Shown in pieces: positions 1 to 12,588 of a DNA stretch of 12,588 bases. The notes below the pieces were generated by a model that was not told the origin of the DNA, made no database searches, and saw only the letters and a program-made list of their open reading frames with translations. A program made the position numbers and the translations under genes. This DNA comes from a virus (lineage: Duplodnaviria; Heunggongvirae; Uroviricota; Caudoviricetes): the IMG/VR virus record IMGVR_UViG_2713896773_000018, positions 1 through 12,588 of that record; one strand, written 5' to 3'. Position 1 is the first letter of the stretch; each line of letters begins with the position of its first letter.

Positions 1-597
1 TCATTGGGCTGCCTCCTGGCGAAGTTGGGCGGCGCGAATTGCTTTCCACTGCGACCACATTCCGTTGTAATCAGTACCGGAAAGAGTTGAGTTGCGGTAG
101 CCGTCATCAGTGCGCAAACCTTCTAGCGTGGTCTTAGAGATGAATATCTTCTCCATTACCCATTCTTCGAATAAATCACGCTCCGTCGCTTCATCTGGAA
201 TAGCACTTGCCCGTACTTCAGCCAGGAAAGCGTCGGTGGCTGGGGTTTTGTTATCTGACTCCAGCCACTGGTTGTAGTAATAATCGAACATGCCAGTAGG
301 ATAACCACATCCGCTGTGCACGTGGTCTTTCATAGCAGAACCACACATGCAGTAGTCATTGTCAGTATTGCTAATGATGTCGATAAGTTGCTGTGTCCGT
401 TGCTTCAACATCGCATTCTCCGCAGCCAGCGCCGCGCATCTGGCTTTAAGCTCTGATAATCGGTCACTGCATTCCGCCAGCACCACATCAACATCGGTAT
501 CAAGCGGAGGAACATGCATGCTGGCGCGGCCTTTGGTGAAGTCTTCAAGTGCCTTTTCGATTCGTTCTTTCAGTGCTGGCTGTGTATTATTTTTCAT
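1..597 (-). CDS. hypothetical phage protein (198 aa from ATG at 597; Cys/His-rich central segment CMCGSAMKDHVHSGCGYP); nin-region position downstream of ren
   Basis: Long minus-strand ORF with its stop codon at 1-3. The ATG at 595-597 overlaps the stop of the upstream Ren-like gene (ATGA overlap) and is preceded by a GGGGTGAGAG Shine-Dalgarno-like stretch. The upstream GTG at 651 has no usable spacer. No family recognised. Confidence 0.6.
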   Translation of the reverse strand: MKNNTQPALKERIEKALEDFTKGRASMHVPPLDTDVDVVLAECSDRLSELKARCAALAAENAMLKQRTQQLIDIISNTDNDYCMCGSAMKDHVHSGCGYPTGMFDYYYNQWLESDNKTPATDAFLAEVRASAIPDEATERDLFEEWVMEKIFISKTTLEGLRTDDGYRNSTLSGTDYNGMWSQWKAIRAAQLRQEAAQ

Positions 598-935
598 GCT
601 CTCACCCCGTATACGCTTAAAATTCTTCTCATCGCCGCGCTGTTGCGGCACTCCTGGCAGATCACGTTTGCCTCTGTACGCTGCACCAGCTTCGAATTTC
701 CCTTCGGCATAGCCGGGATTGTTTCTGGTGCGTATTTCATGCCGTAATCGGTCAGCCGATAAAGCCGCTGGCCGTATTTTCCTTCGCAGCGGATCAGGCC
801 GTCTGCCAGCAGCGTGCTCACCGTTCCGGATATCTTTTTGGTGTCCATGCCGATAAGCCCTGCCAGTTTGGCGTTGTTCAACCCTGGGTTGTTGCGCAGG
901 GCGGCCAGCACCTGCTCACGGATTGTTATGTTCAT
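594..935 (-). CDS. ren: Ren-like protein (113 aa)
   Basis: Start at the internal ATG 933-935, one nucleotide after the P stop; the ORF-track N-terminal extension overlaps P and is rejected. C-terminus ...CQECRNSAAMRRILSVYGVRA resembles the C-terminus of lambda Ren as I recall it (...KECRQSAAMKRVLAVYGVKR). Position immediately downstream of P matches lambda. Confidence 0.65.
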   Translation of the reverse strand: MNITIREQVLAALRNNPGLNNAKLAGLIGMDTKKISGTVSTLLADGLIRCEGKYGQRLYRLTDYGMKYAPETIPAMPKGNSKLVQRTEANVICQECRNSAAMRRILSVYGVRA

Positions 936-936
936 G

Positions 937-1626
937 TCACACCATCCCGTTCGACTTGTTGCGGTTGTACTTGGCCAGCAGCAGCTGGATCGGCGTCGGC
1001 CCTTGCTCGGCAGCTGGTGCGGCAATAGCCCGGCGTACCGGCGGCACTGGCTTACCCTCGGTGACGCGCCTTTCCCACATGTCCAGCAGATCGCCTGCCT
1101 CGCGTGCCAGTTCACCATGCGTTAACTGGCGCTCGGTGCTGCGGTGGCGCAATTCTACGCAAATGTGGTACATGACCGGCTGCGACCATGGAAATTGCTC
1201 GCTGGAGATGAATTCGAACGAACGATTACGCCATTCCCAGTACTCGGCGATCACCTGGTCAACGTTGACGCCCAGCGCGCCGCCGCTCTGCTTGCACCAG
1301 GCGACGAACTGGCCCGGCGACGGCAGGAATGGGCGCTCCTGGCGGCGGGCAATGCGCATGCCGGCATCGACCTGAGCCATGGTGTGGATCCCGTTCTCCT
1401 GAAACGCCAGCAGCCACTGACGGCGGAATTCGTTCAGGTCTTCCTGGGTGCGGAAGTTCGCCATGCTGGCCGGGAACGCGGCGCGCAGCTCGTTGAACAG
1501 CTTGTTGAATACCTGCGCCACCTGCTCGACCGGCGCGCACTCCTGGTACTGCTCTGGCAGGTTATGGGCCATGCGGCTCATCTGCTCGCGGTCGTGGTTA
1601 CGCATCTGCTCTGCAAGAGATTTCAT
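937..1626 (-). CDS. P: replication protein P-like (DnaB helicase loader), 229 aa
   Basis: Collinear similarity to lambda P from memory along the whole length (e.g. MKSLAEQMRNHDREQMSRMAHNLPEQY... and RRQERPFLPSPGQFVAWC). Start ATG 1624-1626 overlaps the O stop (ATGA) and is preceded by GGGGTGA. Confidence 0.9.
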   Translation of the reverse strand: MKSLAEQMRNHDREQMSRMAHNLPEQYQECAPVEQVAQVFNKLFNELRAAFPASMANFRTQEDLNEFRRQWLLAFQENGIHTMAQVDAGMRIARRQERPFLPSPGQFVAWCKQSGGALGVNVDQVIAEYWEWRNRSFEFISSEQFPWSQPVMYHICVELRHRSTERQLTHGELAREAGDLLDMWERRVTEGKPVPPVRRAIAAPAAEQGPTPIQLLLAKYNRNKSNGMV

Positions 1627-2531
1627 CGGATCACCCCATAGGCCCAGTCAGTGTTGTTGAAGTCCAGATCTGGCTTGACAGCGCGCTGCTCACCTCCGGC
1701 GTTACGCTGCATTGTCAGCTTGTCCCACTGCTTACGCAGGCTTTCGGGACTCAGGATGTTGGTCTGCCAGAAGTGGTGTTTGCTAGCCCAGTCATACAGC
1801 GCGCAGATGTCCTGGTGCGACCGGTTGTCTATCTGGCGCATCAGGCGAACAGTGTTAGACCAGGAGGTCATGTCCGGGGCTTTGCAGGTTGGGTTAATCA
1901 GCTTCACCCTGGAGGAAATCCACTTAGCTGTCTCGAGGTCTTCAGCAGAGCCCCACTTCGCACCGGATGGTGTGTAGACCGCAGCTTCAGGATGAGTTGA
2001 TAAAAATTTCTTCAGACGTGCGTCAGAGGATTCGTCAGAATTCTCGGACGAAGATCTTTTAATACTGTTCTTGTTCTTGTATTGGGTGTCTACCGTTTTC
2101 GGGAAGGTTATTCCTGATTTCGGGAAGGATTTTCCCGTTTTCGGGAATTTTCTTCCCGTTTCCGGTTTGTCTAAAATCCATGCTGAAAGGTCAGTGTTTA
2201 CACCGACGATTTTCATCATGCCCTGCTTCTGTGAAAAGATGATTTTGCGTTCTGCGAGAGACTTAAGCGCGTCCGATACATGCGTATCGCTCAGGCCCGT
2301 AAGCTCGGCAATAACCGTATTTGTCACGCGGTCCTGTTTCTTGTTCCAGCCGTAGGTAAGCCAGATCACCGCCTCAAAACATTGCCATTCCCGGCCTGAC
2401 AGTCTCAGGCGAGGCTTAAGCTGTTGGATCTCGTTAGCGACCTTGGTATACCCGTTCGACAGGTCGGCCATACGACCTCCCGGTTGTTCGGTTTTATTTG
2501 GGAAATTGATTATTTCAGCGGTGTTTGACAT
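1623..2531 (-). CDS. O: replication initiator O-like protein, 302 aa
   Basis: N-terminal region (MSNTAEIINFPNK...LTYGWNK...) resembles lambda O. Start ATG 2529-2531 with GGGAGTAAGT RBS; the upstream in-frame extension from the ORF track is rejected. A central repeated peptide FPKTGKSFPKSGITFPKT is encoded by the DNA iterons. Confidence 0.85.
   Translation of the reverse strand: MSNTAEIINFPNKTEQPGGRMADLSNGYTKVANEIQQLKPRLRLSGREWQCFEAVIWLTYGWNKKQDRVTNTVIAELTGLSDTHVSDALKSLAERKIIFSQKQGMMKIVGVNTDLSAWILDKPETGRKFPKTGKSFPKSGITFPKTVDTQYKNKNSIKRSSSENSDESSDARLKKFLSTHPEAAVYTPSGAKWGSAEDLETAKWISSRVKLINPTCKAPDMTSWSNTVRLMRQIDNRSHQDICALYDWASKHHFWQTNILSPESLRKQWDKLTMQRNAGGEQRAVKPDLDFNNTDWAYGVIR
2045..2160. other. 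phage origin of replication (ori-lambda-like): three 21-bp-spaced iterons with internal dyad symmetry plus an adjacent AT-rich stretch, inside the O gene
   Basis: TCGGGAA(GG) recurs at 2099, 2120 and 2141, exactly 21 bp apart, each followed by an inverted TTCC(C/T)G arm (CGGGAAGGATTTTCCCG, CGGGAATTTTCTTCCCG). The flanking 2045-2090 segment is AT-rich (cttttaatactgttcttgttcttgtatt). Lambda ori has the same layout within O. Confidence 0.7.
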
Positions 2532-2616
2532 ACTTACTCCCGTTACTTGCCGTAACACAGTGTGATAAGGGCCTTTGAAGTTACCGCTTCAAGGGCTTTT
2601 TCTTTTCTTGTGCCTC

Positions 2617-3159
2617 TCATATAACCCCCAGCATCGATGTAACCATCGTCATCAGCGGTCCTACCTGCTCCGGCATGAGGCGAAACAATGACGCTATGCC
2701 CTCGCTTACCTCCTTCATTTTCTGGTGCTCAGGCGCGTTCAGGAGAACGGCTTGCTTTGCTTCTGAACATTCCTTCATGGCAGATGCGATCAGCGACATG
2801 GTGTCGTTCTGCGGCGCCAGGCGTGTACGAAACTCAACAGGAAGAACAGCCATGATTGCCGGGGTCAGTTCTCTAACGTTCTCGCGGTACTGATCGGAGT
2901 CGAAGCGGTTATCCAGAAAGCGAAAAAGTTTCTGGCGCGCCCTGCTGATGTCTTCTGGGAAGCTGATGGCGGTACCGCCCTGCTCCCGGTATTCGTTGAT
3001 GATCAGCGCTGACACTACGTCCTGATTGTCCAGGGACGACGACCATGCACGGACCGCATCGCGGATTTTGTCGTGACCTGGCTCCGCCTTAGGTTGAGCG
3101 CGGTTTATCATCGCTCCCGGGTGTATTCCGGTATTGTGTTGATACGCAAGTGAATGCAT
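2617..3159 (-). CDS. CII-position regulatory protein, YdaT / CP76-type (180 aa)
   Basis: ATG at 3157-3159 with AAGGGA RBS. Lies between cro and O where lambda has cII, but is twice the size of CII. Segments IINEYREQGG... and RELTPAIMAVLPVEFRTRL resemble Rac prophage YdaT as I recall it. Family assignment is from memory and unverified. Confidence 0.5.
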   Translation of the reverse strand: MHSLAYQHNTGIHPGAMINRAQPKAEPGHDKIRDAVRAWSSSLDNQDVVSALIINEYREQGGTAISFPEDISRARQKLFRFLDNRFDSDQYRENVRELTPAIMAVLPVEFRTRLAPQNDTMSLIASAMKECSEAKQAVLLNAPEHQKMKEVSEGIASLFRLMPEQVGPLMTMVTSMLGVI

Positions 3160-3189
3160 TGCTTTCCCTTTCGTGGTTAGAGCCGCCGG

Positions 3190-3411
3190 TTAGGCGGCAA
3201 AGATACCTGGATATAGAACTTCGCGAGGAAGTCCGGTTACTTCTTCGTATTTACGCATTTTTGTTACTGGAAGGCTGCCACCTCGCTTTTTAAGCATATT
3301 GATGGCCTGAGGCGTTACGCCGACCTTTTCAGCAAGCACCTTTTGAGAGCCGCCCACTGCATTAATGGCTTTCTCAAGCGGGGTGCTGGCGTTGGATTTT
3401 TTGTTGATCAT
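3190..3411 (-). CDS. cro: Cro-like HTH regulator (73 aa)
   Basis: First gene divergent from the repressor. HTH segment QKVLAEKVGVTPQAINMLKKRGG. ATG at 3409-3411 with a GGAG RBS. Confidence 0.8.
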   Translation of the reverse strand: MINKKSNASTPLEKAINAVGGSQKVLAEKVGVTPQAINMLKKRGGSLPVTKMRKYEEVTGLPREVLYPGIFAA

Positions 3412-3432
3412 GTTTTGCTCCGCTCATGTGTA

Positions 3433-3506
3433 ATCAACACCATGTTAATTCATGGCGTGGATTAAATCAACATTATGGTGATGGAAAAAATCCACATGTT
3501 GTTTAC
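3433..3506. promoter_or_regulatory. OR-like operator cluster: three 17-bp sites of form ATC[AC]ACA-N3-TGnTnAn between cro and cI
   Basis: Site A 3433-3449 ATCAACA CCA TGTTAAT; site B 3466-3482 ATCAACA TTA TGGTGAT; site C 3490-3506 ATCCACA TGT TGTTTAC. The same half-site recurs in the OL region at 5458-5541. Confidence 0.65.
3442..3470 (-). promoter_or_regulatory. candidate PR promoter for cro (minus strand): -35 TTGATT (3465-3470), -10 TAACAT (3442-3447), 17-bp spacer
   Basis: Hexamers read on the minus strand; they overlap operator sites A and B as PR overlaps OR1/OR2 in lambda. The -10 is a weak match, so the exact hexamers are uncertain. Confidence 0.4.
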
Positions 3507-3528
3507 CATGCATGGAGCGGAGGGTTTT

Positions 3529-4248
3529 ATGAGCAGCATTTCTGAAAGAATTAAATTTTTACTGGCAAGGGAAGGCTTGAAGCAGCGGGATTTGGCTGAG
3601 GCTTTGTCGACTAGCCCACAGACCGTTAACAACTGGATAAAAAGAGACGCGTTAAGTCGTGAGGCGGCGCAACAAATATCTGAAAAATTCGGTTATTCTC
3701 TTGACTGGTTATTAAATGGAGAGGGTTCTCCAAAGAAGGATCTGGAGAGCAACATCCCGCCAGAGTCTGAGTGGGGAACTGTCGACGCTTGGGACAAAAA
3801 TACCCCCCTACCTGACGATGAGGTGGAAGTACCGTTTCTGAAGGATATCGAGTTTGCGTGTGGTGATGGACGAGTACACGATGAGGATCACAACGGTTTT
3901 AAATTGCGCTTTTCAAAAGCAACGCTCCGTCGAGTTGGAGCTAACACAGATGGGTCTGGCATCCTGTGTTTCCCTGCTACTGGCGACAGCATGGAACCTG
4001 TGATACCGGATGGTACGACTGTAGCCGTCGATACGAACAACAAACGCATAGTTGATGGGAAACTGTATGCCATTGGTCAGACAGATGGCGGGAATGGTCA
4101 ACTCAAGCGCATTAAACAGCTGTATCGTAAGCCAGGTGGGAAGCTGATCATCCGCAGTTACAACAACGACTCCTACCCAGACGAAGAGGCTGATATTGAT
4201 GATGTCGAGATAATTGGCCGTCTCTTCTGGTACTCGGTATTGCTGTAG
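3529..4248 (+). CDS. cI: CI-like prophage repressor (XRE-type HTH + S24 LexA-like autopeptidase), 239 aa
   Basis: N-terminal HTH (RDLAEALSTSPQTVNNWIKRD). C-terminal S24 signatures GDSMEP (catalytic Ser) and GQLKRIKQL (Lys). The ATG at 3529 has a GGAGCGGAGGG RBS; the upstream ATGs at 3475/3481 lie inside operator site B and lack an RBS. Confidence 0.9.
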   Translation: MSSISERIKFLLAREGLKQRDLAEALSTSPQTVNNWIKRDALSREAAQQISEKFGYSLDWLLNGEGSPKKDLESNIPPESEWGTVDAWDKNTPLPDDEVEVPFLKDIEFACGDGRVHDEDHNGFKLRFSKATLRRVGANTDGSGILCFPATGDSMEPVIPDGTTVAVDTNNKRIVDGKLYAIGQTDGGNGQLKRIKQLYRKPGGKLIIRSYNNDSYPDEEADIDDVEIIGRLFWYSVLL

Positions 4249-4294
4249 CGGTGGCCTGATGAGACGTTTTGGTGAAAGCATATAAGGACTGTTG

Positions 4295-5161
4295 ATGGAA
4301 AACACTGGCTTACACGATGTTAATTTTTCACTTAGATATGACGGTTTGGATGCTGAAAAGCATGAGATTGAACTTTCTTCGCTCGGTGAATCGCTAAAGG
4401 GATTTTCGAAGATATTAGCTACAGCTGGAACCTTCGCATTAACCCAAAAGTACTCGCGAAGCACCTCAACTCAAGAGGTTAAAATTTACGCTACCGAAGC
4501 TAGGGCCAATTGTTTTTCTCTTGATACTATCATGAATTTTATCAGTCAGTCTCAATTGTTCTCAGGGTCTGCGGGGGCTATACTTGGCGCATTAGTGCCT
4601 TATATCTTCGCTAAAAACTCGCAGAAGAAAGAGGAAATGAAATACCTAAAAGAAGCACTTGAGAAGGCAATTGAGGCCCTCGGAAATAAAGATAAAGATA
4701 CCATCTCAGGTCTAATCTCAGTGATTGACAAGATGGCTAGTGAGTTACGCCCATCAGTTAGACAGGCAGTTTCCCCCATCGGTACCACCTGTAATAAGAT
4801 AAGCGTCACACCGGGGAATGGTTTCAAGCCTGCTGTAATTGATGAGCAAGATAAAGCAGTAATAGACCAGTTGGACGACGACGAAGTTCTTGGCTTAAGG
4901 GAGTATCGAATCTTCCTTACTGAATTCGACGCTCACCGAATGACCGCTAAAGTCATTATAGAAGGTGATGATTCAGATAAGCGCATCTCAGCACAAATAA
5001 GCGATCCATCTGCTTCAAAGGCAGACAACCCGTATCTCATTTCACTTAGTCGTTTTCTGTCAACGGGTCTAAGTCATGAGTCAGCGGTAAAAGTAACTGC
5101 CAAAGCAGCAGTTAGAAAAGGGGCTATTAGTAAACTTTTCATAGTTGATATTGAGCTTTAA
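4295..5161 (+). CDS. hypothetical protein (288 aa) in the rex/immunity-moron position; one short hydrophobic stretch, no recognised domain
   Basis: ATG at 4295 with AAGGA RBS (the ORF track starts at a TTG at 4292). Immediately downstream of and co-oriented with cI, followed by a terminator. AT-rich: about 38% GC in a hand-counted 130-nt sample. Hydrophobic stretch [17 protein letters not shown], then a K/E-rich helical segment. Confidence 0.8.
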
Positions 5162-5164
5162 CAA

Positions 5165-5187
5165 CCGGCCACCGCGCCGGGTTTTTT
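5165..5187 (+). terminator. rho-independent terminator ending the cI operon
   Basis: CCGGC-CACCG-GCCGG stem-loop followed by TTTTTT, directly after the stop at 5159-5161. Confidence 0.7.
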
Positions 5188-5191
5188 GTGC

Positions 5192-5401
5192 CTACTTCAC
5201 AGCTTTACTACCCTTCCTGACTATCTCAGCTGCATCCCTGTTCACACCCTTACCTATCACGTTTCCCGTTTCCTTCCGGTACCGTTCCAGCTTGTCGATG
5301 ATGTTTTGCTGGGTCATAGGTAAATCTGCCAGTGACAACTCCATGACCGCCCGCCCCATGGCGTGAACCATCATGTTCACTCTTTCTTCATCCAAGTCCA
5401 T
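5192..5401 (-). CDS. hypothetical small protein (69 aa), convergent with the cI operon
   Basis: Strong RBS AAAGGAGTGGGTA before the ATG at 5399-5401. Its upstream region is the AT-rich operator-bearing segment 5402-5500. No family recognised. Confidence 0.6.
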   Translation of the reverse strand: MDLDEERVNMMVHAMGRAVMELSLADLPMTQQNIIDKLERYRKETGNVIGKGVNRDAAEIVRKGSKAVK

Positions 5402-5457
5402 TACCCACTCCTTTTTGATGTTTTTTTCAGCATATCACTTATGCCACCAAAAAATAA

Positions 5458-5542
5458 ATCAACATAAAAATCAACAGTAAACGATTAAATCAACAAAATA
5501 AATCCACAAGGTGTTGACCTACAAATCCACATGATGTTTAAT
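5458..5542 (+). promoter_or_regulatory. OL/PL-like region: operator half-site array plus candidate PL (-35 TTGACC 5514-5519, -10 TTTAAT 5537-5542, 17-bp spacer)
   Basis: ATCAACA at 5458, 5470 and 5489; full sites ATCCACA AGG TGTTGAC (5502-5518) and ATCCACA TGA TGTTTAA (5525-5541). The promoter hexamers sit inside these two sites, as in lambda OL1/OL2. Confidence 0.6.
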
Positions 5543-5588
5543 TACTCCATCGAAACGAAACATCGACAGCTGAGCGAAGTTAGCCAGC

Positions 5589-5619
5589 GGCGGACAGCAA
5601 GTCGCCTGCTTTTTAACAA
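5589..5619 (+). promoter_or_regulatory. candidate nutL-like antitermination site: hairpin (5589-5606) followed by boxA-like TGCTTTTTAACAA (5607-5619)
   Basis: TGCTTTTTAACAA differs at one position from the E. coli rrn boxA core TGCTCTTTAACAA as I recall it. It lies about 40-70 nt downstream of the predicted PL start, preceded by a GGCGG/UCGCC stem. Confidence 0.4.
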
Positions 5620-5843
5620 CATGCAAAGTCGGAACAGCACTCAGTAATCCTGTTTAGACCCCAACGTACAAATTCGGCGCAGCACCGGGCGCGATCCGGT
5701 CGGTGTGAGGCTACCCCCTCGCGAGAGCGATAAAGGCGTGGGAACGGGCAACACTGGCTGGATGAGAGGTGCGAAGCGCAAACAGATTTATTCCAGTCCA
5801 TTCGAAGTTGAGTGGGCTGGGCTGAATCACAAGAGGATTTTTT

Positions 5844-6056
5844 ATGACTCAGACATACATTCCGGCGTGTTTAAGAGACCTTCCTAAGAAGCGTCAGAAG
5901 CCACGCAAACAGGCGATTAAAGAAGCGCAAGTGGAAGTTCTGAATAAGGCAATCGCATCGATAAAAGACGATATGCGTGCGTTCAAAACAGAAGAGCAGC
6001 GTCGCGGTCATTACCAGGCGATCAGCACACTCTCACAGATTCGTGATGAGTTGTAG
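5844..6056 (+). CDS. small basic protein (70 aa), first gene of the PL operon (N position); function unassigned
   Basis: Strong RBS AAGAGGA with a 6-nt spacer. Basic N-terminal segment LPKKRQKPRKQAIK. No clear arginine-rich motif of the lambda N type, so an antiterminator role is positional inference only. Confidence 0.6.
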   Translation: MTQTYIPACLRDLPKKRQKPRKQAIKEAQVEVLNKAIASIKDDMRAFKTEEQRRGHYQAISTLSQIRDEL

Positions 6057-6079
6057 AAGCTGATAGATAAAGCATTTCT

Positions 6080-6097
6080 CCCGCATCAGCGGGTAAC
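6080..6097 (+). repeat. copy 1 of a 17-bp direct repeat CCGCATCAGCGGGTAAC (hairpin CCCGC-ATCA-GCGGG)
   Basis: Identical 17-mer at 6081-6097 and 6303-6319, each just upstream of a gene's RBS. Confidence 0.8.
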
Positions 6098-6113
6098 TAA
6101 GTGGAGAGTACGT

Positions 6114-6302
6114 ATGCACAAGTGTCAATTCTGTGGGTACTTTCTGGCATCTGAAGAGATGCAGAGAATATCTGTAAACATGGTTGGCAGGCCTTACAAC
6201 ATCTGCATTCCATGCTCAGAAAAGTACAAAAAGAAAGGCCTGTGGGATTCGGCAAAAAACGATATCGACTGGAAATCACTTCCATGCGTCGATGAGACAT
6301 AA
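6114..6302 (+). CDS. small zinc-ribbon-like protein (62 aa; CxxC...CxxC)
   Basis: RBS GGAGAG with a 5-nt spacer. Cys pairs CQFC and CIPC about 24 residues apart. AT-rich. Flanked by the 17-bp direct repeats. Confidence 0.6.
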   Translation: MHKCQFCGYFLASEEMQRISVNMVGRPYNICIPCSEKYKKKGLWDSAKNDIDWKSLPCVDET

Positions 6303-6319
6303 CCGCATCAGCGGGTAAC
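6303..6319 (+). repeat. copy 2 of the 17-bp direct repeat CCGCATCAGCGGGTAAC
   Basis: Exact match to 6081-6097; begins one nucleotide after the stop of the 6114-6302 gene. Confidence 0.8.
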
Positions 6320-6335
6320 GACAGAGGGTAAGTCA

Positions 6336-7004
6336 ATGATTCGTCTTAACAACGAAATTAAAAATCAGCTATGCCATAACCTGCTTCTCGCATCCCCATT
6401 GTTTGAGAAAGCGAAAGCTGCGGTTAATGAGAGGGCGAAAATTGTTGAAGAAATTCGACAGGCATTGCTCAAGCAGGAAAACACTAGCGATGAGCAAATA
6501 ACTAAGGCTCGGGAAGATTTCAAAGATAACTCCTTCATCAAGATGCAGGTCGGCGCTAAAACTGCAACTTTAAAGGTCATTATTAATGGTGAGTATCACG
6601 AATTAGCCAGGAACGGTTTGGATCATCGCTATCGCCACCGTGGAAAACATATTGGTAAGCACGATCTTGAAAGCGACCTGTTCTTCGGAGCTTCCTTCGC
6701 GCCTGTAATTGATTCGGGTTTCGTTCCTGAAAGTTACAGCACGCTGAAGAAAGTTGGAAAATTACACGACCGACTCACTGAATCGACGGTAACCATCAAC
6801 GTTCTTTACGATGAAGTTGATGCCTTCCAATTGCAGGTTAAAGGTGCTCTAACCAAAGTCTCAACTGTTAAAAAACTGGCTGAGATGTGGCCTGAGGCAG
6901 TGCCATATTTGCCTGAGGTGGAACGCCGTGAAGCGACCAGCACCGCACTTGCCATTCCCGTTGAAACGCTAAACGCCCTTTGCGGCATACCAAAGAATGA
7001 ATGA
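6336..7004 (+). CDS. hypothetical protein (222 aa), AT-rich accessory gene in the ral/sieB-equivalent position
   Basis: RBS GAGGG. A long ORF with no internal stops in AT-rich DNA, followed by a strong terminator. No family recognised. Confidence 0.8.
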   Translation: MIRLNNEIKNQLCHNLLLASPLFEKAKAAVNERAKIVEEIRQALLKQENTSDEQITKAREDFKDNSFIKMQVGAKTATLKVIINGEYHELARNGLDHRYRHRGKHIGKHDLESDLFFGASFAPVIDSGFVPESYSTLKKVGKLHDRLTESTVTINVLYDEVDAFQLQVKGALTKVSTVKKLAEMWPEAVPYLPEVERREATSTALAIPVETLNALCGIPKNE

Positions 7005-7026
7005 CCCGCTCCGGCGGGTTTTTTAT
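7005..7026 (+). terminator. rho-independent terminator
   Basis: CCCGC-TCCG-GCGGG stem-loop followed by TTTTTTAT, immediately after the TGA at 7002-7004. Confidence 0.8.
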
Positions 7027-7165
7027 CGGCCATACATAGGCAGATTTTCGAGTCTGCCCATTTATGACAACCGGCGGCCATCCACCGCCCATTGAAACAC
7101 TGAATAAATGCGTTGAAGTCTTGTATTAACCGTTCGGCGGCGCGGCCTTAAGCGCGGAGATGATT

Positions 7166-7675
7166 ATGACTCTTATCGAATTGACCAAAAAGAAAATGGC
7201 AATTGAAGCCGAACTGGCTCAGTTGAAGGCGAAGTTTGTTGATGACACCTCACGCATCGGTAAAGAGCTGATTGCCGTGTCTGAAGGTATCAACCAGGCC
7301 AATAAAGGCCTAACGGTTGAGATGGTTAGGCATGGCATGACGATCATTAACTTCGGTGACCCGAAACAAAGCATGGAGCGGCGCGGGTGTGTTGAAGACG
7401 CGATTAACGACATTGCGTCGGGGTTCAACCGTCTGAGCGAGCGTTATTTTGGCACAAAAAACTACGCCCACTGGAGCGATCAGCGTGAAGACCATCGCTA
7501 TGGATATGGCCCTAAACACGGCTCTATCTGCTTCAAGATCGGTTTAACTGGCACCGCACTTAATAAGCTGGCAAGCGGCGGGTTGAGTGATTACGACGCT
7601 GAATGCGCTATCTACTGCCTGATGAACATTGACGCCATCAATGCGGCAAACGACAAAGCCCGGGAGGCATCATGA
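7166..7675 (+). CDS. hypothetical phage protein (169 aa)
   Basis: GGAG at 7156-7159 favours the ATG at 7166 over the one at 7160. The stop overlaps the next ORF's start (ATGA). Confidence 0.7.
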   Translation: MTLIELTKKKMAIEAELAQLKAKFVDDTSRIGKELIAVSEGINQANKGLTVEMVRHGMTIINFGDPKQSMERRGCVEDAINDIASGFNRLSERYFGTKNYAHWSDQREDHRYGYGPKHGSICFKIGLTGTALNKLASGGLSDYDAECAIYCLMNIDAINAANDKAREAS

Positions 7676-7830
7676 CAGTCACCCATAACGGAAAGAAGTA
7701 CACCGCCAAAAAGCTCAACGATAACGAGTGGCAGCTGACGTCCGTATCGGCACCGCGTGAAAAGCTGACGCTTAACCGCTGGCATATGAAGCTGGCTGGC
7801 CTCCTGGAACAGGTTGAGGTGAAGGTATGA
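7672..7830 (+). CDS. small hypothetical protein (52 aa; MTVTHNGKKYTAKKLNDNEWQLTSVSAPREKLTLNRWHMKLAGLLEQVEVKV), not in the supplied ORF track
   Basis: Strong RBS GGGAGG 5 nt upstream of the ATG at 7672. ATGA overlaps with both the upstream and downstream genes suggest translational coupling. Confidence 0.55.
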   Translation: MTVTHNGKKYTAKKLNDNEWQLTSVSAPREKLTLNRWHMKLAGLLEQVEVKV

Positions 7831-8333
7831 TGCGAAAGCACAAGTTGCCAAGTGCTGAGGAGATAGATTCCTTGCTGGATTACAACCCTGAAACCGGAGT
7901 ATTTACGTGGAAAGTGACGAAATCAGGATGGGTTGTAAAGGGGCGGCCTGCTGGTTCAAAAAACAATAATGGCTATCTCCGAGTTGGTATTGGAAGAAGG
8001 CACTACTTCCTTTCTCGAATCGCATTTTTCTTATGCACCGGGGAATCACCTGAAGAAGTAGACCATATCAATGGTGACAGAACAGATAACAGGGCGTGCA
8101 ACTTAAGAGCCGCAAGCCGTCATGAAAACTGCCTCAATAAGTCGGTAAGAAGCGACAGCAGGACTGGTGTAAAGGGCGTCTCATGGCGACCGGATGTTAA
8201 AAAATGGTCTGCACGATCAACTGATTCATCGGGGAAGAGAGTGTTTTTAGGTTACTACCGCACCATCAGAGATGCGGTGGCTGTCCTTAATGATTTTCGG
8301 AGAGAACAGCATGGTGAGTTTGCAAAAAATTAG
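7827..8333 (+). CDS. HNH homing endonuclease with C-terminal AP2-type DNA-binding domain (168 aa)
   Basis: HNH motif EEVDHINGDRTDNRACNLRAASRHENCLN. AP2-like segment GVKGVSWRPDVKKWSARST...KRVFLGYY. RBS GAGGTGAAGG. Confidence 0.85.
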   Translation: MMRKHKLPSAEEIDSLLDYNPETGVFTWKVTKSGWVVKGRPAGSKNNNGYLRVGIGRRHYFLSRIAFFLCTGESPEEVDHINGDRTDNRACNLRAASRHENCLNKSVRSDSRTGVKGVSWRPDVKKWSARSTDSSGKRVFLGYYRTIRDAVAVLNDFRREQHGEFAKN

Positions 8334-8544
8334 CAGCAACTTGCACTACGGCACCACCCCGCTCATTCGCCAGTGCGTCACGCCAGGCATGATGGCATTG
8401 CATGAAGGCCGCACCTATCGCGTCTCAGCAGTCATTCAGGAGCGCAAATGGGTGTACCTGCACACCGATGCAGAAATTATCCGCCTCAGTGACTGCGTGA
8501 TTGACGTCCTTCTGGACGGTCACGGAAACCCTATCCAGCACTAA
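8311..8544 (+). CDS. hypothetical protein (77 aa), start overlapping the 3' end of the HNH gene by 23 nt
   Basis: RBS GGAGAG with a 6-nt spacer before the ATG at 8311; the ORF-track start at 8272 has no RBS. Confidence 0.5.
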   Translation: MVSLQKISSNLHYGTTPLIRQCVTPGMMALHEGRTYRVSAVIQERKWVYLHTDAEIIRLSDCVIDVLLDGHGNPIQH

Positions 8545-8613
8545 CCACCCTATTCATCCGATCGGCCTGGCTTCTGCGGGCGGGATCTGCACATCCAAAT
8601 TTCAGGAGAAACC

Positions 8614-9582
8614 ATGAGCGAAGTAACGGACTTAACTGTCATCGAAATCAAGCCGGAACAGGCCCCAGTGCTTTACGTAGCGGGCGGCCTTGACGCGTAC
8701 CTTGAGCAAATCCGCCAGGCTGTAAACGAAGTGCCGGACCTGTCCACGAAGAAAGGCCGTGACCGTGTCGCCTCTCTGGCGGCGCAGGTATCCCGCAGCA
8801 AGACAGCAATCGAAAAGCCGGGCCGTGAATACCTTAAGCGCCTGAAAGAGGCTGTGCGTCCGGCTGAGGCCGAAATTAAGCGTTTCGTTGATGCTTGCGA
8901 CGAGCTACGTGATGCCACCCGCCGCCCACTCACCGAATGGGAAGCCGAGCAGGAGCGCATCAAGGCTGAAGAAGCCATGAATGCGCTGCACGCCGAAGCG
9001 CTGGAGATGAACGAAGAGTTTGACCGCCAGCGCGCCGCTCAAATCGAAGCGGACCACGAAATGGCTCTGCTGATGAATGAGAAGTTTGACCGTGACCGCG
9101 AAGAGCAGCGCCGCCTGGCAGAACAGGCTCAGCGCGAACGTGACGAACGACTGAAGCAGGACGCGGCAGAACAAGCCCGCCGCGATGCCGAAGCGATGCA
9201 CAAAGCAGAGATTGAAGCCGCAGCGCGCCGTGAAGCTGAAGAGAAAGCACGTGCAGAGCTGGCTGAACGCCAGCGCGTCGAAGCGGAACAGCGTGCAGCT
9301 CGCGAGAAGCAGGAAGCAATCGCAGAAGAAAAACGCAAAGCGCAGGAAGAAGCAGATCGCATCAAGCGCGAAGCTGAAGCGAAAGAGAAAGCCCGTCTGG
9401 CCGAAGAGCAGCGCAAAGTTGAAGAAGAAGCGCGCCGCGCCGCAGACAAAGAGCACCGCCGCACCGTCAACCGTCGCGTCATCGCCGACCTTATAGCTCA
9501 GGGCATCCCCGAAGAATTCGCGCAGAAAGCACTGCTGGCGATCGCTGGCGGCAAAGTGCAGGACGCGCACATCAAATATTGA
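8614..9582 (+). CDS. hypothetical protein (322 aa) with a long Ala/Glu/Arg/Lys-rich low-complexity central region
   Basis: RBS AGGAG. Globular-looking N-terminus of about 100 aa, then about 180 aa of ERKA-rich repeats (e.g. AEEKRKAQEEADRIKREAEAKEKARLAEEQRKVEEEARRA), then a short C-terminal tail. Located immediately upstream of gam. Confidence 0.75.
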   Translation: MSEVTDLTVIEIKPEQAPVLYVAGGLDAYLEQIRQAVNEVPDLSTKKGRDRVASLAAQVSRSKTAIEKPGREYLKRLKEAVRPAEAEIKRFVDACDELRDATRRPLTEWEAEQERIKAEEAMNALHAEALEMNEEFDRQRAAQIEADHEMALLMNEKFDRDREEQRRLAEQAQRERDERLKQDAAEQARRDAEAMHKAEIEAAARREAEEKARAELAERQRVEAEQRAAREKQEAIAEEKRKAQEEADRIKREAEAKEKARLAEEQRKVEEEARRAADKEHRRTVNRRVIADLIAQGIPEEFAQKALLAIAGGKVQDAHIKY

Positions 9583-9589
9583 GGCAACC

Positions 9590-9871
9590 ATGAACGCATA
9601 CCTCACTTACGACCGAATCGAAGATCGGCGCTGGGTTGAGCAGCAGCTCACCGACGAGAAGGAGAAGTGGATCGACAACCGGGCGAAAGAACTGATCGCC
9701 ATGTTCCCGAAATATGCTCTGCAAATGAGTAGCCTGTTTCTCCCAAAAGAAGCGCAAATGGCACTAGTCGGTGAAAAGGCAGAGGAAGCCTATAACGACT
9801 ATGTCACACGCATCTGTTACGACCGCGCCGAAGAAGAGTGGGATCGCCTTCATCCAACCTGCCCATTTTAA
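9590..9871 (+). CDS. gam: Gam-like host-nuclease (RecBCD) inhibitor, 93 aa
   Basis: N-terminus MNAYLTYDRIEDRRW... resembles the short form of lambda Gam (MNAYYIQDRLEAQSW...) from memory. Position directly upstream of the annealing-protein and exo genes. RBS GAGG. Confidence 0.55.
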   Translation: MNAYLTYDRIEDRRWVEQQLTDEKEKWIDNRAKELIAMFPKYALQMSSLFLPKEAQMALVGEKAEEAYNDYVTRICYDRAEEEWDRLHPTCPF

Positions 9872-9880
9872 GGAGGGGCT

Positions 9881-10798
9881 ATGAGCTTAACCCTTGTTGA
9901 TTTCGTCAAACAACAGGAGCCGCTTTTCATTAAGGCGGCCACAGACGAGCGGATGGTGTGGGCGAAGGAAAGCCAGTTCGCCATCCAGCTATTTCAGAAC
10001 AATGACTACCTCGCGAAAGTCGCATTCCAGAACCAGACCAGCACGCAGAACGCAATAATCAACGTTGCGGCTATCGGTATTTCGCTAAACCCAGCTCAGA
10101 AGCTGGCTTACCTGGTTCCGCGTAAAGGGGCAGTTTGCCTCGACATCAGTTACATGGGCCTGATGCACATTGCGCAGCAGTCTGGCGCCATTAAATGGTG
10201 TCAGTCGGCAATTGTTCGCAGAAACGACCAGTTCCGCCGCGAAGGGCTCGATAAGCCGCCGGTCCATATCTACAACGACTTCGATACCGAAGAGCAGCGC
10301 GGGGACATCGTAGGGGCATATGTAACGGTAAAAACTGACGATGGTGATTACCTCACCCATACGATGCGCATCGATGCCATTTACTCCATCCGTGACCGGT
10401 CTGAAGCATGGAAGAAGTACAAATCTGACAACAGTAAAAAGTGTCCATGGGTCACTGACGAAGAACAGATGATCCTCAAAACAGTCGTGAAGCAGGCAGC
10501 AAAATACTGGCCTCGCCGTGAGCGCCTGGACGCCGCCATAGACCACGTTAACACCGAGGGCGAAGAAGGTATCAACTTTACAGCAGAGCGTCAGCCTGAG
10601 CGCGATATAACGCCGCTTAGCGAAACCACGCAGAAAGAGATAAACGACCTGCTTGTCTCTTTGGATAAGACATGGGATGACGATCTTCTCCCTCTCTGCT
10701 CACGCATTTTCAAACGCCCTATCACGCAGCCAGCAGACCTGACAGAGCTTGAAGGTGTTAAAGCTCTCGGGTTCCTCAGACAAAAGGCGGCAGCATGA
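9881..10798 (+). CDS. single-strand annealing protein: RecT-like core with a Red-beta (Bet)-like C-terminal tail, 305 aa
   Basis: Perfect RBS AGGAGG. The C-terminal ~70 aa ([13 protein letters not shown]...[16 protein letters not shown]...[12 protein letters not shown]) closely match the lambda Bet C-terminus as I recall it. The N-terminal ~230 aa look RecT-like rather than Bet-like. Stop overlaps the exo start (ATGA). Confidence 0.8.
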
Positions 10799-11475
10799 CA
10801 CCAGAAATTATCCTGGCCCGGACCGGCATTGACGTAACCACTATCCAGCAGGGCGACGAGGCGTGGCACCGGCTGCGCCTCGGCGTTATCACCGCATCTG
10901 AAGTTCACAACGTCATTTCCAAGCCCAGATCTGGGAAGAAGTGGACAGACATGAAAATTTCCTACTTCCACACCCTACTCGCCGAGGTATGCACCGGCGT
11001 AGCGCCAGAGGTTAACGCCAAGGCGCTGGCCTGGGGGAAGCAGTATGAAGAAGACGCCCGCACCCTCTTCGAGTTCACCACCGACGTGAAAGTCACGGAG
11101 TCTCCGATCTTGTTCCGTGACGAGAGCATGCGCACCGCGTGCTCACCTGACGGCCTTTGCAGTAACGGATTCGGCCTCGAATTGAAATGCCCGTTCACCT
11201 CCCGCGACTTCATGAAATTCCGCCTTGGCGGTTTCGAAGCCATCAAGTCTGCCTACATGGCCCAGGTGCAGTTCAGCATGTGGGTGACCGGGAAAGACGC
11301 CTGGTTCTTTGCCAACTACGACCCGCGCATGAAGCGCGAAGGTATTCACCACGTCGTCGTTGAGCGGGATCCACAGTACATGACCAATTTCAACGAAATG
11401 GTGCCGGAGTTCATCGAGAAGATGGACGAGGCGCTGGCGGAGATCGGCTTCAGGTTCGGGGAGCAGTGGAAATGA
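10795..11475 (+). CDS. exo: lambda-type 5'-3' exonuclease (Red-alpha / YqaJ family), 226 aa
   Basis: Near-collinear, high-identity match to lambda Exo from memory ([14 protein letters not shown]...[24 protein letters not shown]...[31 protein letters not shown]...[10 protein letters not shown]). Confidence 0.93.
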
Positions 11476-11518
11476 AACGCACACCATTTTACCGCAGGCC
11501 CGGGCGAACCGGGCAATC

Positions 11519-12097
11519 ATGAAACGCCTGGACGATGTTTGCGGCAAAGCAGGATGGCGCAATGAATACCGCGATATTCCCAACAACGGCGGAGTTGAAT
11601 GCGGCATATCAATCAAGATTGATTCCGAATGGGTAACCAAATGGGATGCTGCTGAAAACACGCAGGTAGAAGCCGTCAAAGGTGGTCGTTCAGGTGCAAT
11701 GAAGCGTGCTGCCGTTCAGTGGGGAATAGGTCGGTATCTGTATAACCTTGAGGAAGGTTTCGCACAAACATCTCTCGATAAAAAGCAGGGATGGCACAGG
11801 GCAAAACTCAAGGGTGGAACAGGATTTTACTGGCTCCCTCCATCGCTGCCGGGATGGGCAATCCCAGCATCAGATAACAAACCATCACCAGAAAATACCA
11901 ACCATAAATCTCCATCGGTTGACTGCGAGCAAATCCTGAAAGACTTCAGCGATTATGCGTCAACAGAAACTGATAAGAAAAAACTCATCGAGCGTTATCA
12001 GCGTGACTGGCAATTAATGGCTGGCAACGAGGAGGCGCAGGCTAAATGCGTTCAGGTAATGAACATCAGAGTTAACGAACTAAAACAGGCGGCATAA
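11519..12097 (+). CDS. Erf/Rad52-superfamily-like protein, apparently N-terminally shortened (192 aa)
   Basis: C-terminal ~55 aa (EQILKDFSDYASTETDKKKLIERYQRDWQLMAGNEEAQAKCVQVMNIRVNELKQAA) closely match the P22 Erf C-terminus as I recall it. Rad52-like motif AMKRAAVQWGIGRYLY at residues ~60-75 leaves too little upstream sequence for a complete annealing domain. Weak RBS. Confidence 0.55.
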   Translation: MKRLDDVCGKAGWRNEYRDIPNNGGVECGISIKIDSEWVTKWDAAENTQVEAVKGGRSGAMKRAAVQWGIGRYLYNLEEGFAQTSLDKKQGWHRAKLKGGTGFYWLPPSLPGWAIPASDNKPSPENTNHKSPSVDCEQILKDFSDYASTETDKKKLIERYQRDWQLMAGNEEAQAKCVQVMNIRVNELKQAA

Positions 12098-12319
12098 ATG
12101 GCAAGCAGAGGCGTAAATAAGGTGATCATTATTGGTCGCCTTGGGCATGATCCAGAAATCAGAGATTCATTCAACAAGGTTGCAAAGCGCGTTCCGGCAT
12201 TCAAAGGAATCCTCAACGAATGGGATTCACTCGTTGCTCTGTTGAAGTCTGAAATGAAGATACACGGAAACAAAGCACCAGAGACTTACAGAAGAATCAG
12301 CGAGCTACGCAAGGACTAA
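12098..12319 (+). CDS. 73-aa ORF whose first 22 codons are an ssb 5' remnant (MASRGVNKVIIIGRLGHDPEIR) fused to unrelated sequence
   Basis: The first ~66 nt resemble the start of E. coli ssb at protein and DNA level, from memory. After codon 22 no frame continues SSB-like sequence, so this is a recombination junction rather than a frameshift. Whether the product is functional is unknown. Confidence 0.45.
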   Translation: MASRGVNKVIIIGRLGHDPEIRDSFNKVAKRVPAFKGILNEWDSLVALLKSEMKIHGNKAPETYRRISELRKD

Positions 12320-12320
12320 C

Positions 12321-12381
12321 GCCTCACACTCGATGAGGCCTGTACATATCTGATAGAGCCGCTATATGGCGGTTTATTTTT
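12321..12381 (+). terminator. two hairpins after the ssb-remnant ORF; the second (12358-12381) is terminator-like with a T-tract
   Basis: Perfect 6-bp inverted repeat GCCTCA-N7-TGAGGC at 12321-12339. Then CCGC-TATATG-GCGG followed by TTTATTTTT. Confidence 0.45.
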
Positions 12382-12396
12382 GCCTGGAGAATTAAG

Positions 12397-12588
12397 ATGA
12401 CCGATACCAGCCTGATTCCTGAGAAAGAAGTGATGAACAAGCTCGGTGTTTCATCACGTCAGACAATCTGGAACTATACCAAACGGCACGGATTTCCGAA
12501 GCCAGTCAGAACCCACCCCAAATCATACCTTCGTGAAGCTGTTGAAGGGTGGATTCTTAACGGTGGCGTTAATCAGAAATGCTCCTGA
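12397..12588 (+). CDS. xis: excisionase / AlpA-family small HTH protein (63 aa)
   Basis: RBS GGAGAA. Motif EKEVMNKLGVSSRQTIWNYTKRHGFPKPV is typical of the AlpA/Xis family. Sits at the distal end of the early-left operon where xis-int lie in lambdoid phages. The stop is at the last three bases of the window. Confidence 0.75.
   Translation: MTDTSLIPEKEVMNKLGVSSRQTIWNYTKRHGFPKPVRTHPKSYLREAVEGWILNGGVNQKCS

Follow-up and report, generated by a model that had tools for sequence, protein, structure and literature searches.

Why does the same 17-bp hairpin sequence stand on both sides of a single small gene in the early-left operon of a lambdoid prophage? The question is raised by a 12,588-nt stretch of DNA from a member of the Caudoviricetes (IMG/VR record IMGVR_UViG_2713896773_000018, positions 1 to 12,588; hereafter the window), which represents a phi80/HK225-like lambdoid prophage. 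A preliminary description of the locus had proposed that the hairpins are either structured RNA elements or boundary sequences at which the enclosed gene, which encodes a protein of 62 aa, was inserted by recombination. The most probable explanation, to which a probability of roughly 0.8 can be assigned, is that the two 17-mers represent the doubled core of a conserved junction block into which the small gene recombined, and that this block serves both as a crossover linker and as a module of the 5′ untranslated region (5′-UTR). The repeat pair itself is an ordinary gene swap in phi80-like viruses, and a clear example of one.

A duplicated hairpin around a one-gene cassette

Exact and mismatch searches confirmed that the 17-mer CCGCATCAGCGGGTAAC is present in exactly two copies, located at positions 6081–6097 and 6303–6319 on the plus strand of the window and spaced 222 bp from start to start; there is no further copy in the window, even if up to three mismatches are allowed. 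None of 200 dinucleotide-preserving shuffles produced two matches, which identifies the repeat as non-random. The identity between the copies is limited to the 17 nt, and the flanks differ on either side. Copy 1 is positioned 24 nt past the TAG stop codon of a 70-aa open reading frame (ORF) and is followed after 16 nt by the ATG of the 62-aa ORF; copy 2 starts directly after the TAA of the 62-aa ORF and ends 16 nt before the ATG (6336) of a gene of the Nmad5 family. These positions corroborate that each copy is situated between the stop codon of one gene and the ribosome-binding site (RBS) of the next, and that together they flank the 62-aa gene precisely.

Each copy consists of the hairpin CCGC-ATCA-GCGG plus GTAAC. 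Both are predicted to fold into the stem-loop given in the preliminary description, but they are not equivalent. Copy 1 has a 5-bp stem that includes the pair C6080–G6093 (−9.0 kcal/mol), whereas copy 2 is limited to the 4-bp stem CCGC/GCGG (−6.6 kcal/mol), because the preceding base is an A. The cassette between the copies (6098–6302, plus strand) comprises its own Shine-Dalgarno region, TAAGTGGAGAGTACGT, and the gene of the 62-aa protein (6114–6302, plus strand; PHROG 19863), which contains a CxxC...CxxC motif. This protein is the only coding content of the insert, which carries no recombinase gene; no promoter- or terminator-like site was found within the cassette, and its ends (TAAGTGGAGAG... 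and ...GATGAGACATAA) are not inverted repeats. The gene is without annotation in the three complete Escherichia coli genomes (RefSeq) that carry it. The resident gene behind the cassette is the Nmad5-family gene (6336–7004, plus strand; Pfam PF18757, E = 6e-31).

A conserved junction block with the 17-mer at its core

An alignment of all occurrences places the 17-mer at the core of a sharply bounded block of ~50 nt, CCAAAGCATTTCTC-CCGCATCAGCGGGTAAC-GACAGAGGGTAAGGnnATG, whose right part begins with a polymorphic site (CCAAAGCATTTCTC-CCGCATCAGCGGGTAAC-[G/T]ACAGAGGGTAAGGnnATG). In phi80-like prophages, the block occupies the position where the long, non-coding leader of the early-left promoter (pL) is joined to the first early-left gene, whichever gene that is; in phi80 itself, it is located directly before the N gene (M11919, 996–1052). 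The 144 non-redundant occurrences combine 79 left-flank types with 91 right-flank types. The majority base has a frequency of at least 0.93 from position −12 to position +23, except for 0.81 at the G/T site (+17). Conservation is 0.95–0.99 at positions +18 to +23, 0.58–0.85 at positions +24 to +31, and 0.79–0.91 in the ATG. Outside the block, it drops to ~0.35, immediately past the ATG on the right and over a few bases on the left. Clustering of the 147 nt upstream of the block gives 24 unrelated groups, and the first genes behind the block number dozens and are likewise unrelated.

In the window, the two arms of the block are distributed over the two copies of the 17-mer. The 5′ arm (AAAGCATTTCTC; 6069–6080, plus strand), which is at least 93% conserved across the 144 flank combinations, precedes copy 1; the 3′ arm (GACAGAGGGTAAGTCA plus ATG; 6320–6338, plus strand), which contains the Shine-Dalgarno sequence and the start codon of the next gene (Nmad5), follows copy 2. 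Copy 2 is without the 5′ arm, and copy 1 is without the 3′ arm.

The bare 17-mer is present in more than 119 IMG/VR contigs, which is a lower bound. The block occurs in 112 of 5426 complete E. coli genomes, almost always as a single copy, in at least 14 other species genomes of Enterobacteriaceae, and also in HK225, four Enterobacter phages, and one Klebsiella phage. In the species-genome collection, the genera with the block are Enterobacter, Kosakonia, Scandinavium, Trabulsiella, Pseudocitrobacter, Pseudescherichia, and Escherichia. The 76 matches of the bare 17-mer in this collection compare with ~69 expected by chance (596 Gb, two strands); the full block is restricted to the matches in Enterobacteriaceae, and the remaining matches of the 17-mer are at chance level. 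The records inspected, including that of phi80, contain no annotation of the block, and Rfam gave no match at the site, neither in the window (E-value mode) nor in 16 related loci.

Exchange of flanks across the block

Evidence for recombination comes from relatives that share the flanking genes with the window but are without the cassette. Loci L001 (E. coli 730V1) and L003 (NCTC9040) carry the 70-aa gene, one block, and Nmad5 but not the 62-aa gene, and their single 17-mer combines the left flank of copy 1 with the right flank of copy 2. Both are at least 99.3% identical to the window on either side of the cassette; for L001, the identity is 99.8% in the leader, 99.6% in the 70-aa gene, and 100% in the right arm. 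The difference between the window and L001 is a clean indel of 222 bp, which comprises one 17-mer and the 62-aa gene with its own RBS and equals the spacing of the repeats. Nmad5 directly follows a single block also in L004 and L005.

The unit formed by the 17-mer, the Shine-Dalgarno sequence with the 62-aa gene, and the second 17-mer recurs in 15 further loci, with 95.5–100% identity and always with two hairpins. Its contexts comprise about seven on the left (the 70-aa gene or one of six kinds of leader) and about five on the right (Nmad5, phi80-type N, HK225 sequence, and two other genes). In L112, the homology to the window reaches only 30 nt beyond the right end of the cassette, and the leader on the left side is unrelated. 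The joints must therefore be located inside the block, in a span of a few tens of bases. Sites −9 and +17 occur in all four possible haplotypes (85, 24, 8, and 4), and 17 left-flank types occur with both alleles at +17. The segments of the window each have their own nearest relatives, and judging from these comparisons, the window is a classic mosaic.

The single-copy relatives with hybrid flanks, the many contexts of the unit, and the recombination of flank types across the block all uphold the earlier proposal that the repeat marks a boundary of cassette insertion. The preliminary description had also called for a check of whether the genes between copies of the 17-mer vary among relatives. 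Copies are widespread and their flanks vary; of the 91 right-flank types, only the 62-aa gene is bracketed by the 17-mer.

The joints of other insertions at this junction differ. The 73-aa gene inserted in L071 stands between copies of a ~15-nt repeat (GGGTAACGAYAGAG; GGGTAACGA[T/C]AGAG). The stop codon of this gene is contained in the repeated GGGTAAC, and no hairpin accompanies the second copy of the repeat. L046 possesses two whole blocks, 967 nt apart. The 70-aa gene of the window (5844–6056, plus strand; PHROG 5305), which is inserted between the leader and the block, represents a separate insertion relative to L012, L019, and L249. These loci share the leader (98.9% identity in the case of L012) but have it joined straight to the block, and the joint of the insertion is a microhomology of only 3 nt (AAG). 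Distant homologs of the 62-aa gene (68–85% identity) are found in unrelated phages. In two of these lineages (L282/L283 and L267, around a homolog at 1501–1686), the homologs stand between direct repeats of different ribosome-binding sequences (AATAACGGAGGGAGTATG, and TCACGTTAT.A.GGGG), which suggests that the start region of the downstream gene generally tends to be duplicated upon gene insertion. The varying lengths of the duplications (3, ~15, 17, and ~50 nt) argue for unequal or illegitimate joins and against a transposase or a site-specific recombinase. Together, the joints point to unequal and homologous recombination in a conserved linker as a mechanism that is not specific to the hairpin.

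A possible origin of the doubled hairpin

The doubled hairpin may have originated by an unequal (illegitimate or microhomology-based) join between two block-bearing phages, one of which would have carried the 62-aa gene as its first gene, whereas the other would have contributed the block from the hairpin onward. Homologous recombination that used either the block or longer stretches of homology in the flanks could later have added or removed the unit, which could also have been lost by a deletion between the two direct repeats of 17 bp. The RecT protein and the exonuclease encoded by the phage itself, a pair that tolerates short homology, probably helped in the exchange. The block would function as a portable 5′-UTR and translation-initiation module of the first early gene, to which it would supply the Shine-Dalgarno sequence and the start codon, and the hairpin would be an element of structure or stability at the point where the structured leader ends. 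The most attractive RNA role of the block would be as a site where the mRNA is processed away from the leader or as a protection of its 5′ end. Conservation of the block as a 5′-UTR module would make it a common site of crossover.

Several points weigh against this interpretation. The recombination is deduced from sequence comparison, and the 222-bp difference fits gain and loss of the unit alike. An exchange between window-like and L001-like phages could have used the long flanks that are 100% identical instead of the block, and the pattern of four haplotypes could be due in part to recurrent mutation. A role as a linker leaves the near-invariance of 36 nt across genera unexplained, so that some cis function must exist. 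A function of the hairpin in the 5′-UTR is without covariation: an exhaustive scan of IMG/VR for variants of the 5′ stem yielded three that preserve pairing as G·U, four that break the pair, and none that is compensated, the stem being otherwise almost invariant. Moreover, the gene downstream of the cassette in L071 does without the hairpin.

Alternative explanations

It is possible, though clearly less probable, that the block is primarily a dedicated RNA signal and that recombination is a side effect of its conservation. This explanation is compatible with a role as a linker; the difference lies in which aspect is primary. The signal might be an RNase E-type processing site (AAGC|AUUUC) with a 5′-protective hairpin, which would free the mRNA of the first gene from the nut-bearing, polymerase-tethered leader, or a translational operator, whose CU-rich arm would mask the Shine-Dalgarno sequence. 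AAGC|AUUUC fits the preference of RNase E for RN|WUU, and UUUCU is predicted to be capable of pairing with the AGAGG of the phi80 Shine-Dalgarno sequence and, in copy 1, with GGAGA. The near-invariance of the block across genera, which includes the unpaired arms, points to a sequence-specific reader. The hairpin is stable (only 3 of 200 shuffles fold equally well as the −9.0 kcal/mol structure), and in the flank-anchored sample its variation is found mostly in the last base of the loop. The block also starts where the structured leader ends, and six to seven leader types end a tRNA-like fold at its 5′ edge, which is the kind of place where the 3′ processing of tRNA precursors happens. The variants of the stem argue against such a signal, since compensatory changes are absent and single stem-breaking variants persist. 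In L265, the two hairpin copies (~1468–1484 and 1690–1706) have each acquired their own stem-breaking substitution (CCGCATCAACGG and CAGCATCAGCGG), indicating that the copies evolve independently and tolerate a loss of pairing. Larger folds in contexts of 54–60 nt are no better than shuffled controls (z = −0.4 to −0.9). Neither copy in the window is a complete signal, because copy 2 has a stem of 4 bp and is without the 5′ arm and copy 1 is without the 3′ arm, and the second gene in L071 is not preceded by a hairpin at all. A function as nut-type (boxB-like) antitermination sites or as pause or terminator signals in the pL operon is highly improbable. Both hairpins are part of the pL transcript, whose leader contains a boxA, and the block of phi80 lies just before N. 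However, the nutL of phi80 is annotated by the depositor at positions 661–938 of M11919, outside the block at 996–1052, and a profile search of 190 loci detected no second or diverged copy in the rightward (pR) operon or on the opposite strand. The block is equally conserved where the first gene is not a homolog of phi80 N (the 70-aa protein of the window is unrelated to it), and only 47 of 144 leaders contain a boxA-like sequence within 500 nt. The tails of the hairpins (TAACTAAG and TAACGACA) contain no T-run, and neither copy was flagged by a terminator scan. The structured RNA element of the preliminary description may be real and is plausible on thermodynamic grounds; compensatory changes in the almost invariant stem, a T-run, and a location within the annotated nutL of phi80 are all lacking, as is a hairpin before the second gene of L071.

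Very unlikely, too, is a mimicry of the type I-E CRISPR repeat of the host, by which the hairpin, made in the first phage transcript, would act as an RNA anti-CRISPR-like decoy or as a site processed by Cas6e. The two copies around a 205-nt segment would then resemble a repeat-spacer-repeat unit. It is just as improbable that the hairpin, transcribed from pL within the first seconds of infection or induction, is bound or cut by Cas6e, so that it would serve as a decoy or release the mRNA of the first gene from the leader, and that the 62-aa gene would be a unit excisable by this enzyme. A text search with the core sequence matched only the type I-E CRISPR repeat of E. coli, as printed in PMC9782134. 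The sequence CCCGC-ATCA-GCGGG is an exact match of 14 nt to one distal repeat of the K-12 array; in this array, the form with the ATCA loop is a single degenerate distal repeat, and the loop is GCCA in 10 of the 13 repeats. The match to the canonical repeat GAGTTCCCCGCGCCAGCGGGGATAAACCG is 12/14 (the upper five pairs of the stem and CA of the loop), with a local alignment score that was matched by 40 of 5000 shuffles. All hosts of the block are Enterobacteriaceae, among which the type I-E repeat family is common. Solitary repeats and mini-arrays that are carried by phages and inhibit type I-E systems have been documented (PMC10651486; bioRxiv 10.1101/2024.10.29.618823). Against this stands the absence of the basal C-G pair beside the Cas6e cleavage site and of the AUAAACCG handle; only TTC-CCCGC..CAGCGGG aligns, and the conserved arms of the block are unlike the repeat. 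The spacer-like parts of known type I-E mini-arrays measure ~24 nt, compared to the 205-nt gene of the window (bioRxiv 10.1101/2024.10.29.618823). Upstream of the block, no promoter is closer than pL, which is ~530 nt away in the window and ~340 nt away in phi80 and thus lies beyond the ~250 bp within which a promoter, along with expression as a small RNA, is demanded of solitary repeats (PMC10651486). The block sequence is not among the published Racr candidates, the match was found post hoc by text search, and the number of possible sequences for a GC-only stem of 5 bp is small. That the 17-bp repeats represent a target-site duplication or a site-specific recombination site (of a transposon, an integron-attC-like element, or a homing cassette) is extremely improbable, even though an exact direct repeat surrounds a small insert that is present or absent in near-identical genomes and a gene for an HNH endonuclease is located 1.5 kb downstream. 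The insert possesses neither terminal inverted repeats nor a recombinase gene, and 17 bp is far longer than the usual target-site duplications. Other insertions at the junction duplicate 3, ~15, or ~50 nt, which is unlike a site-specific mechanism, and the 62-aa gene is the only one among the 91 right-flank types that is bracketed by the 17-mer. Also, GTTACCC does not fit GTTRRRY, the core consensus of attC. Finally, there is a negligible probability that the block is conserved as coding sequence, either as the tail of an upstream ORF or as the start of a gene on the minus strand. RefSeq contains coding sequences of 150–157 aa on the minus strand that begin in or cross the block; ORFs annotated by the Prokaryotic Genome Annotation Pipeline (PGAP) as "ECs_2282 family zinc-binding protein" start at an ATG complementary to the CAT in the hairpin, and the minus-strand ORF from this ATG has at least 50 codons in 45 of 136 leaders. 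Frame statistics contradict the explanation: the plus-strand frames that lead into the block are open over a median of only 18–24 codons, and the minus-strand ORFs are erratic in length (quartiles 13–63 codons), with translations of low complexity. The CxxC domain of ECs_2282 (residues 84–139) is encoded ~250 nt upstream of the block and in some leader types only; elsewhere, ECs_2282 is annotated as an ORF of 59 aa, and the minus-strand ORF of the window gave no match to this family. A minus-strand gene would also leave the conserved part to the right of the ATG non-coding, and no Shine-Dalgarno sequence is present there.

Features of the leaders upstream of the block

Among 127 distinct leaders, six to seven contain a tRNA-like cloverleaf, as called by ARAGORN, which belongs to two sequence types. 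It is found in L071 (11356–11426) and also in L046, L030, L059, L212, L246, and L025; the leader of the window is not among them. The calls feature a T-loop of TTCGATT or TTCGAAT, an acceptor stem of 7 bp, and an ...ACCA end. All ARAGORN calls have their end at the 5′ edge of the block, with none elsewhere; the Rfam tRNA model remains below threshold.

Many leaders that are otherwise unrelated (L254, which is phi80, at ~3470–3345 on the minus strand, and L006, L038, L071, L005, and L046) share a 5′ motif, GGAATGTT(T/A)TGGG. Behind this motif, a G/U-rich strand is complementary to a C/A-rich strand just before the block, with an apparent covariation between leader types (GGTGTGG/CCACACC, GATGTGGT/ACCACATC, and GGTGAGT/ACTCACC); both were judged by eye. 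The complementarity suggests a long-range helix that would close a variable structured domain. Neither the shared motif nor the helix has a match in Rfam.

In some pL leaders, a CxxC ORF of 59–60 aa ("ECs_2282") is located in antisense orientation (L005, 1781–1960; L252, 2037–2216; both on the minus strand). Further antisense ECs_2282 ORFs occur in L284 (802–1275) and L285 (769–1221), also on the minus strand; the length assigned by PGAP is 150–157 aa in some RefSeq genomes. The long ECs_2282 calls that start in or beyond the block are probably over-extended ORFs. The block is of practical use in annotation: PGAP mis-extends minus-strand ORFs across it, and the 62-aa gene is missing from the RefSeq annotation.

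The early-left operon and its surroundings

A gene for a cI-type repressor (3475–4248) is followed by operator-like repeats (5497–5519 and 5520–5542). Within these OL operator repeats lies a pL-type early-left promoter (5514–5542, plus strand; TTGACC, a 17-nt spacer, and TTTAAT). The operator/pL region of the window is 91% identical to the O-L/pL region of phi80, which is annotated with −35 and −10 elements and CI operators. The pL transcript starts near position 5550 and carries both hairpins, located ~530 nt (copy 1) and ~750 nt (copy 2) from its start. The boxA-like sequence TGCTTTTTAACAA in the pL leader (5607–5619, plus strand), a nut-type signal ~460 nt upstream of copy 1, is identical to a feature of phi80 annotated as "nutL boxA".

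The early-left operon on the plus strand encodes, in this order, the 70-aa protein, the 62-aa protein, Nmad5, an HNH endonuclease, Kil, GamL, RecT, and a YqaJ exonuclease. The RecT-family annealing protein (9881–10798; Pfam PF03837, E = 1e-29) and the YqaJ-type exonuclease (10795–11475; Pfam PF09588, E = 6e-31) form the pair that may have taken part in the exchange. The nearest candidate for an intrinsic terminator is a terminator-like hairpin with a T-run (7003–7020, plus strand), and the homologous stretch of HK639 is annotated as a terminator. A sub-threshold Rfam match to IsrK, a small RNA of Gifsy-1 (6968–7024; 21.3 bits against a gathering threshold of 50, E = 0.49), overlaps this hairpin behind Nmad5 and is probably just the terminator.

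Other features of the window lie apart from the junction. A 168-aa protein encoded at 7827–8333 in the early-left operon has an HNH_3 domain and a weak AP2 domain and resembles homing endonucleases. The slot between the repressor gene and pL, occupied by a DUF7946/DUF7947 gene (4292–5161), is variable as well, with gene 40A in phi80 and a YafO toxin or DUF6932 in relatives. Three tandem repeats of 21 bp (CCGTTTTCGGGAAGG...; 2093–2165) within an ORF of 311 aa on the minus strand (1623–2558) look like the origin iterons inside a replication-initiator gene, as in lambda O.

Comparison with known systems

The block shares its location with the N leader and nutL of lambda, as it is transcribed from pL and separates the promoter-proximal leader from the first gene (N in phi80), with a GC-rich hairpin of the size of boxB and a boxA upstream. 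Unlike the lambda site, it falls outside the nutL annotated in phi80, lacks a counterpart in the pR operon, and is conserved whether or not an N homolog follows. The boxB elements of lambda, P22, and phi21 differ from the hairpin of the block in both loop and stem. With the type I-E repeat, solitary repeat units, and Racr and Cracr RNAs, the hairpin has in common the upper 5 bp of the stem bound by Cas6e, the size of the tetraloop, its phage origin, and early transcription. Unlike the type I-E repeat, it lacks the basal pair, the context of the cleavage site, the 5′ handle, and a near promoter, and it is located within an mRNA leader.

The cassette, in turn, resembles a moron in being a single small gene between resident genes that is present or absent in close relatives. 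However, morons carry their own promoter and terminator (PMC3029335), whereas the cassette has only its own RBS and depends on transcription from pL. As in integron cassettes, a promoterless ORF with a hairpin repeat at its 3′ end is positioned downstream of a common promoter and leader. By contrast, the hairpin is 13–14 nt long, compared to the 60–120 nt of an imperfect attC, and there is neither an integrase nor a GTTRRRY core. Unlike in integrons, only one type of gene is bracketed, and other insertions at the site have different joints. Judged by the features that can be tested from sequence, the block does not qualify as a nut site, terminator, target-site duplication, or attC site, nor as a bona fide CRISPR solitary repeat.

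At the level of sequence, the block comes closest to the short conserved boundary (linker) sequences known from mosaic phages: it is conserved between unrelated flanks, exchange has taken place within it, and the end points of presence or absence coincide with the copies. The concept of such linkers stems from the modular theory of Susskind and Botstein and from the boundary sequences in lambdoid phages. A boundary sequence of ~50 bp has been described in mycobacteriophages (PMC3029335). As in that case (Island3/Brujita; PMC3029335), a short conserved sequence is situated at a gene boundary between non-homologous modules, and presence or absence is explained by general recombination between copies, with gain and loss being indistinguishable. 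Most mosaic joints are without such a conserved sequence (PMC3029335), and convincing examples of linkers are few.

The value of the locus rests on the breadth, sharpness, and invariance of the junction and not on the repeat pair. With ~80 kinds of leader joined to ~90 first early genes in more than 100 prophages of several enterobacterial genera, the block offers a clean natural setting in which the linker model of phage mosaicism can be tested. It also flags a cis element at the start of early phage gene expression, whose conservation needs a functional explanation. Compared to other boundary sequences, the block is unusually widespread and sharply bounded in view of its many left and right partners, and it occupies a single regulatory position, where it combines a hairpin with a ribosome-binding site.

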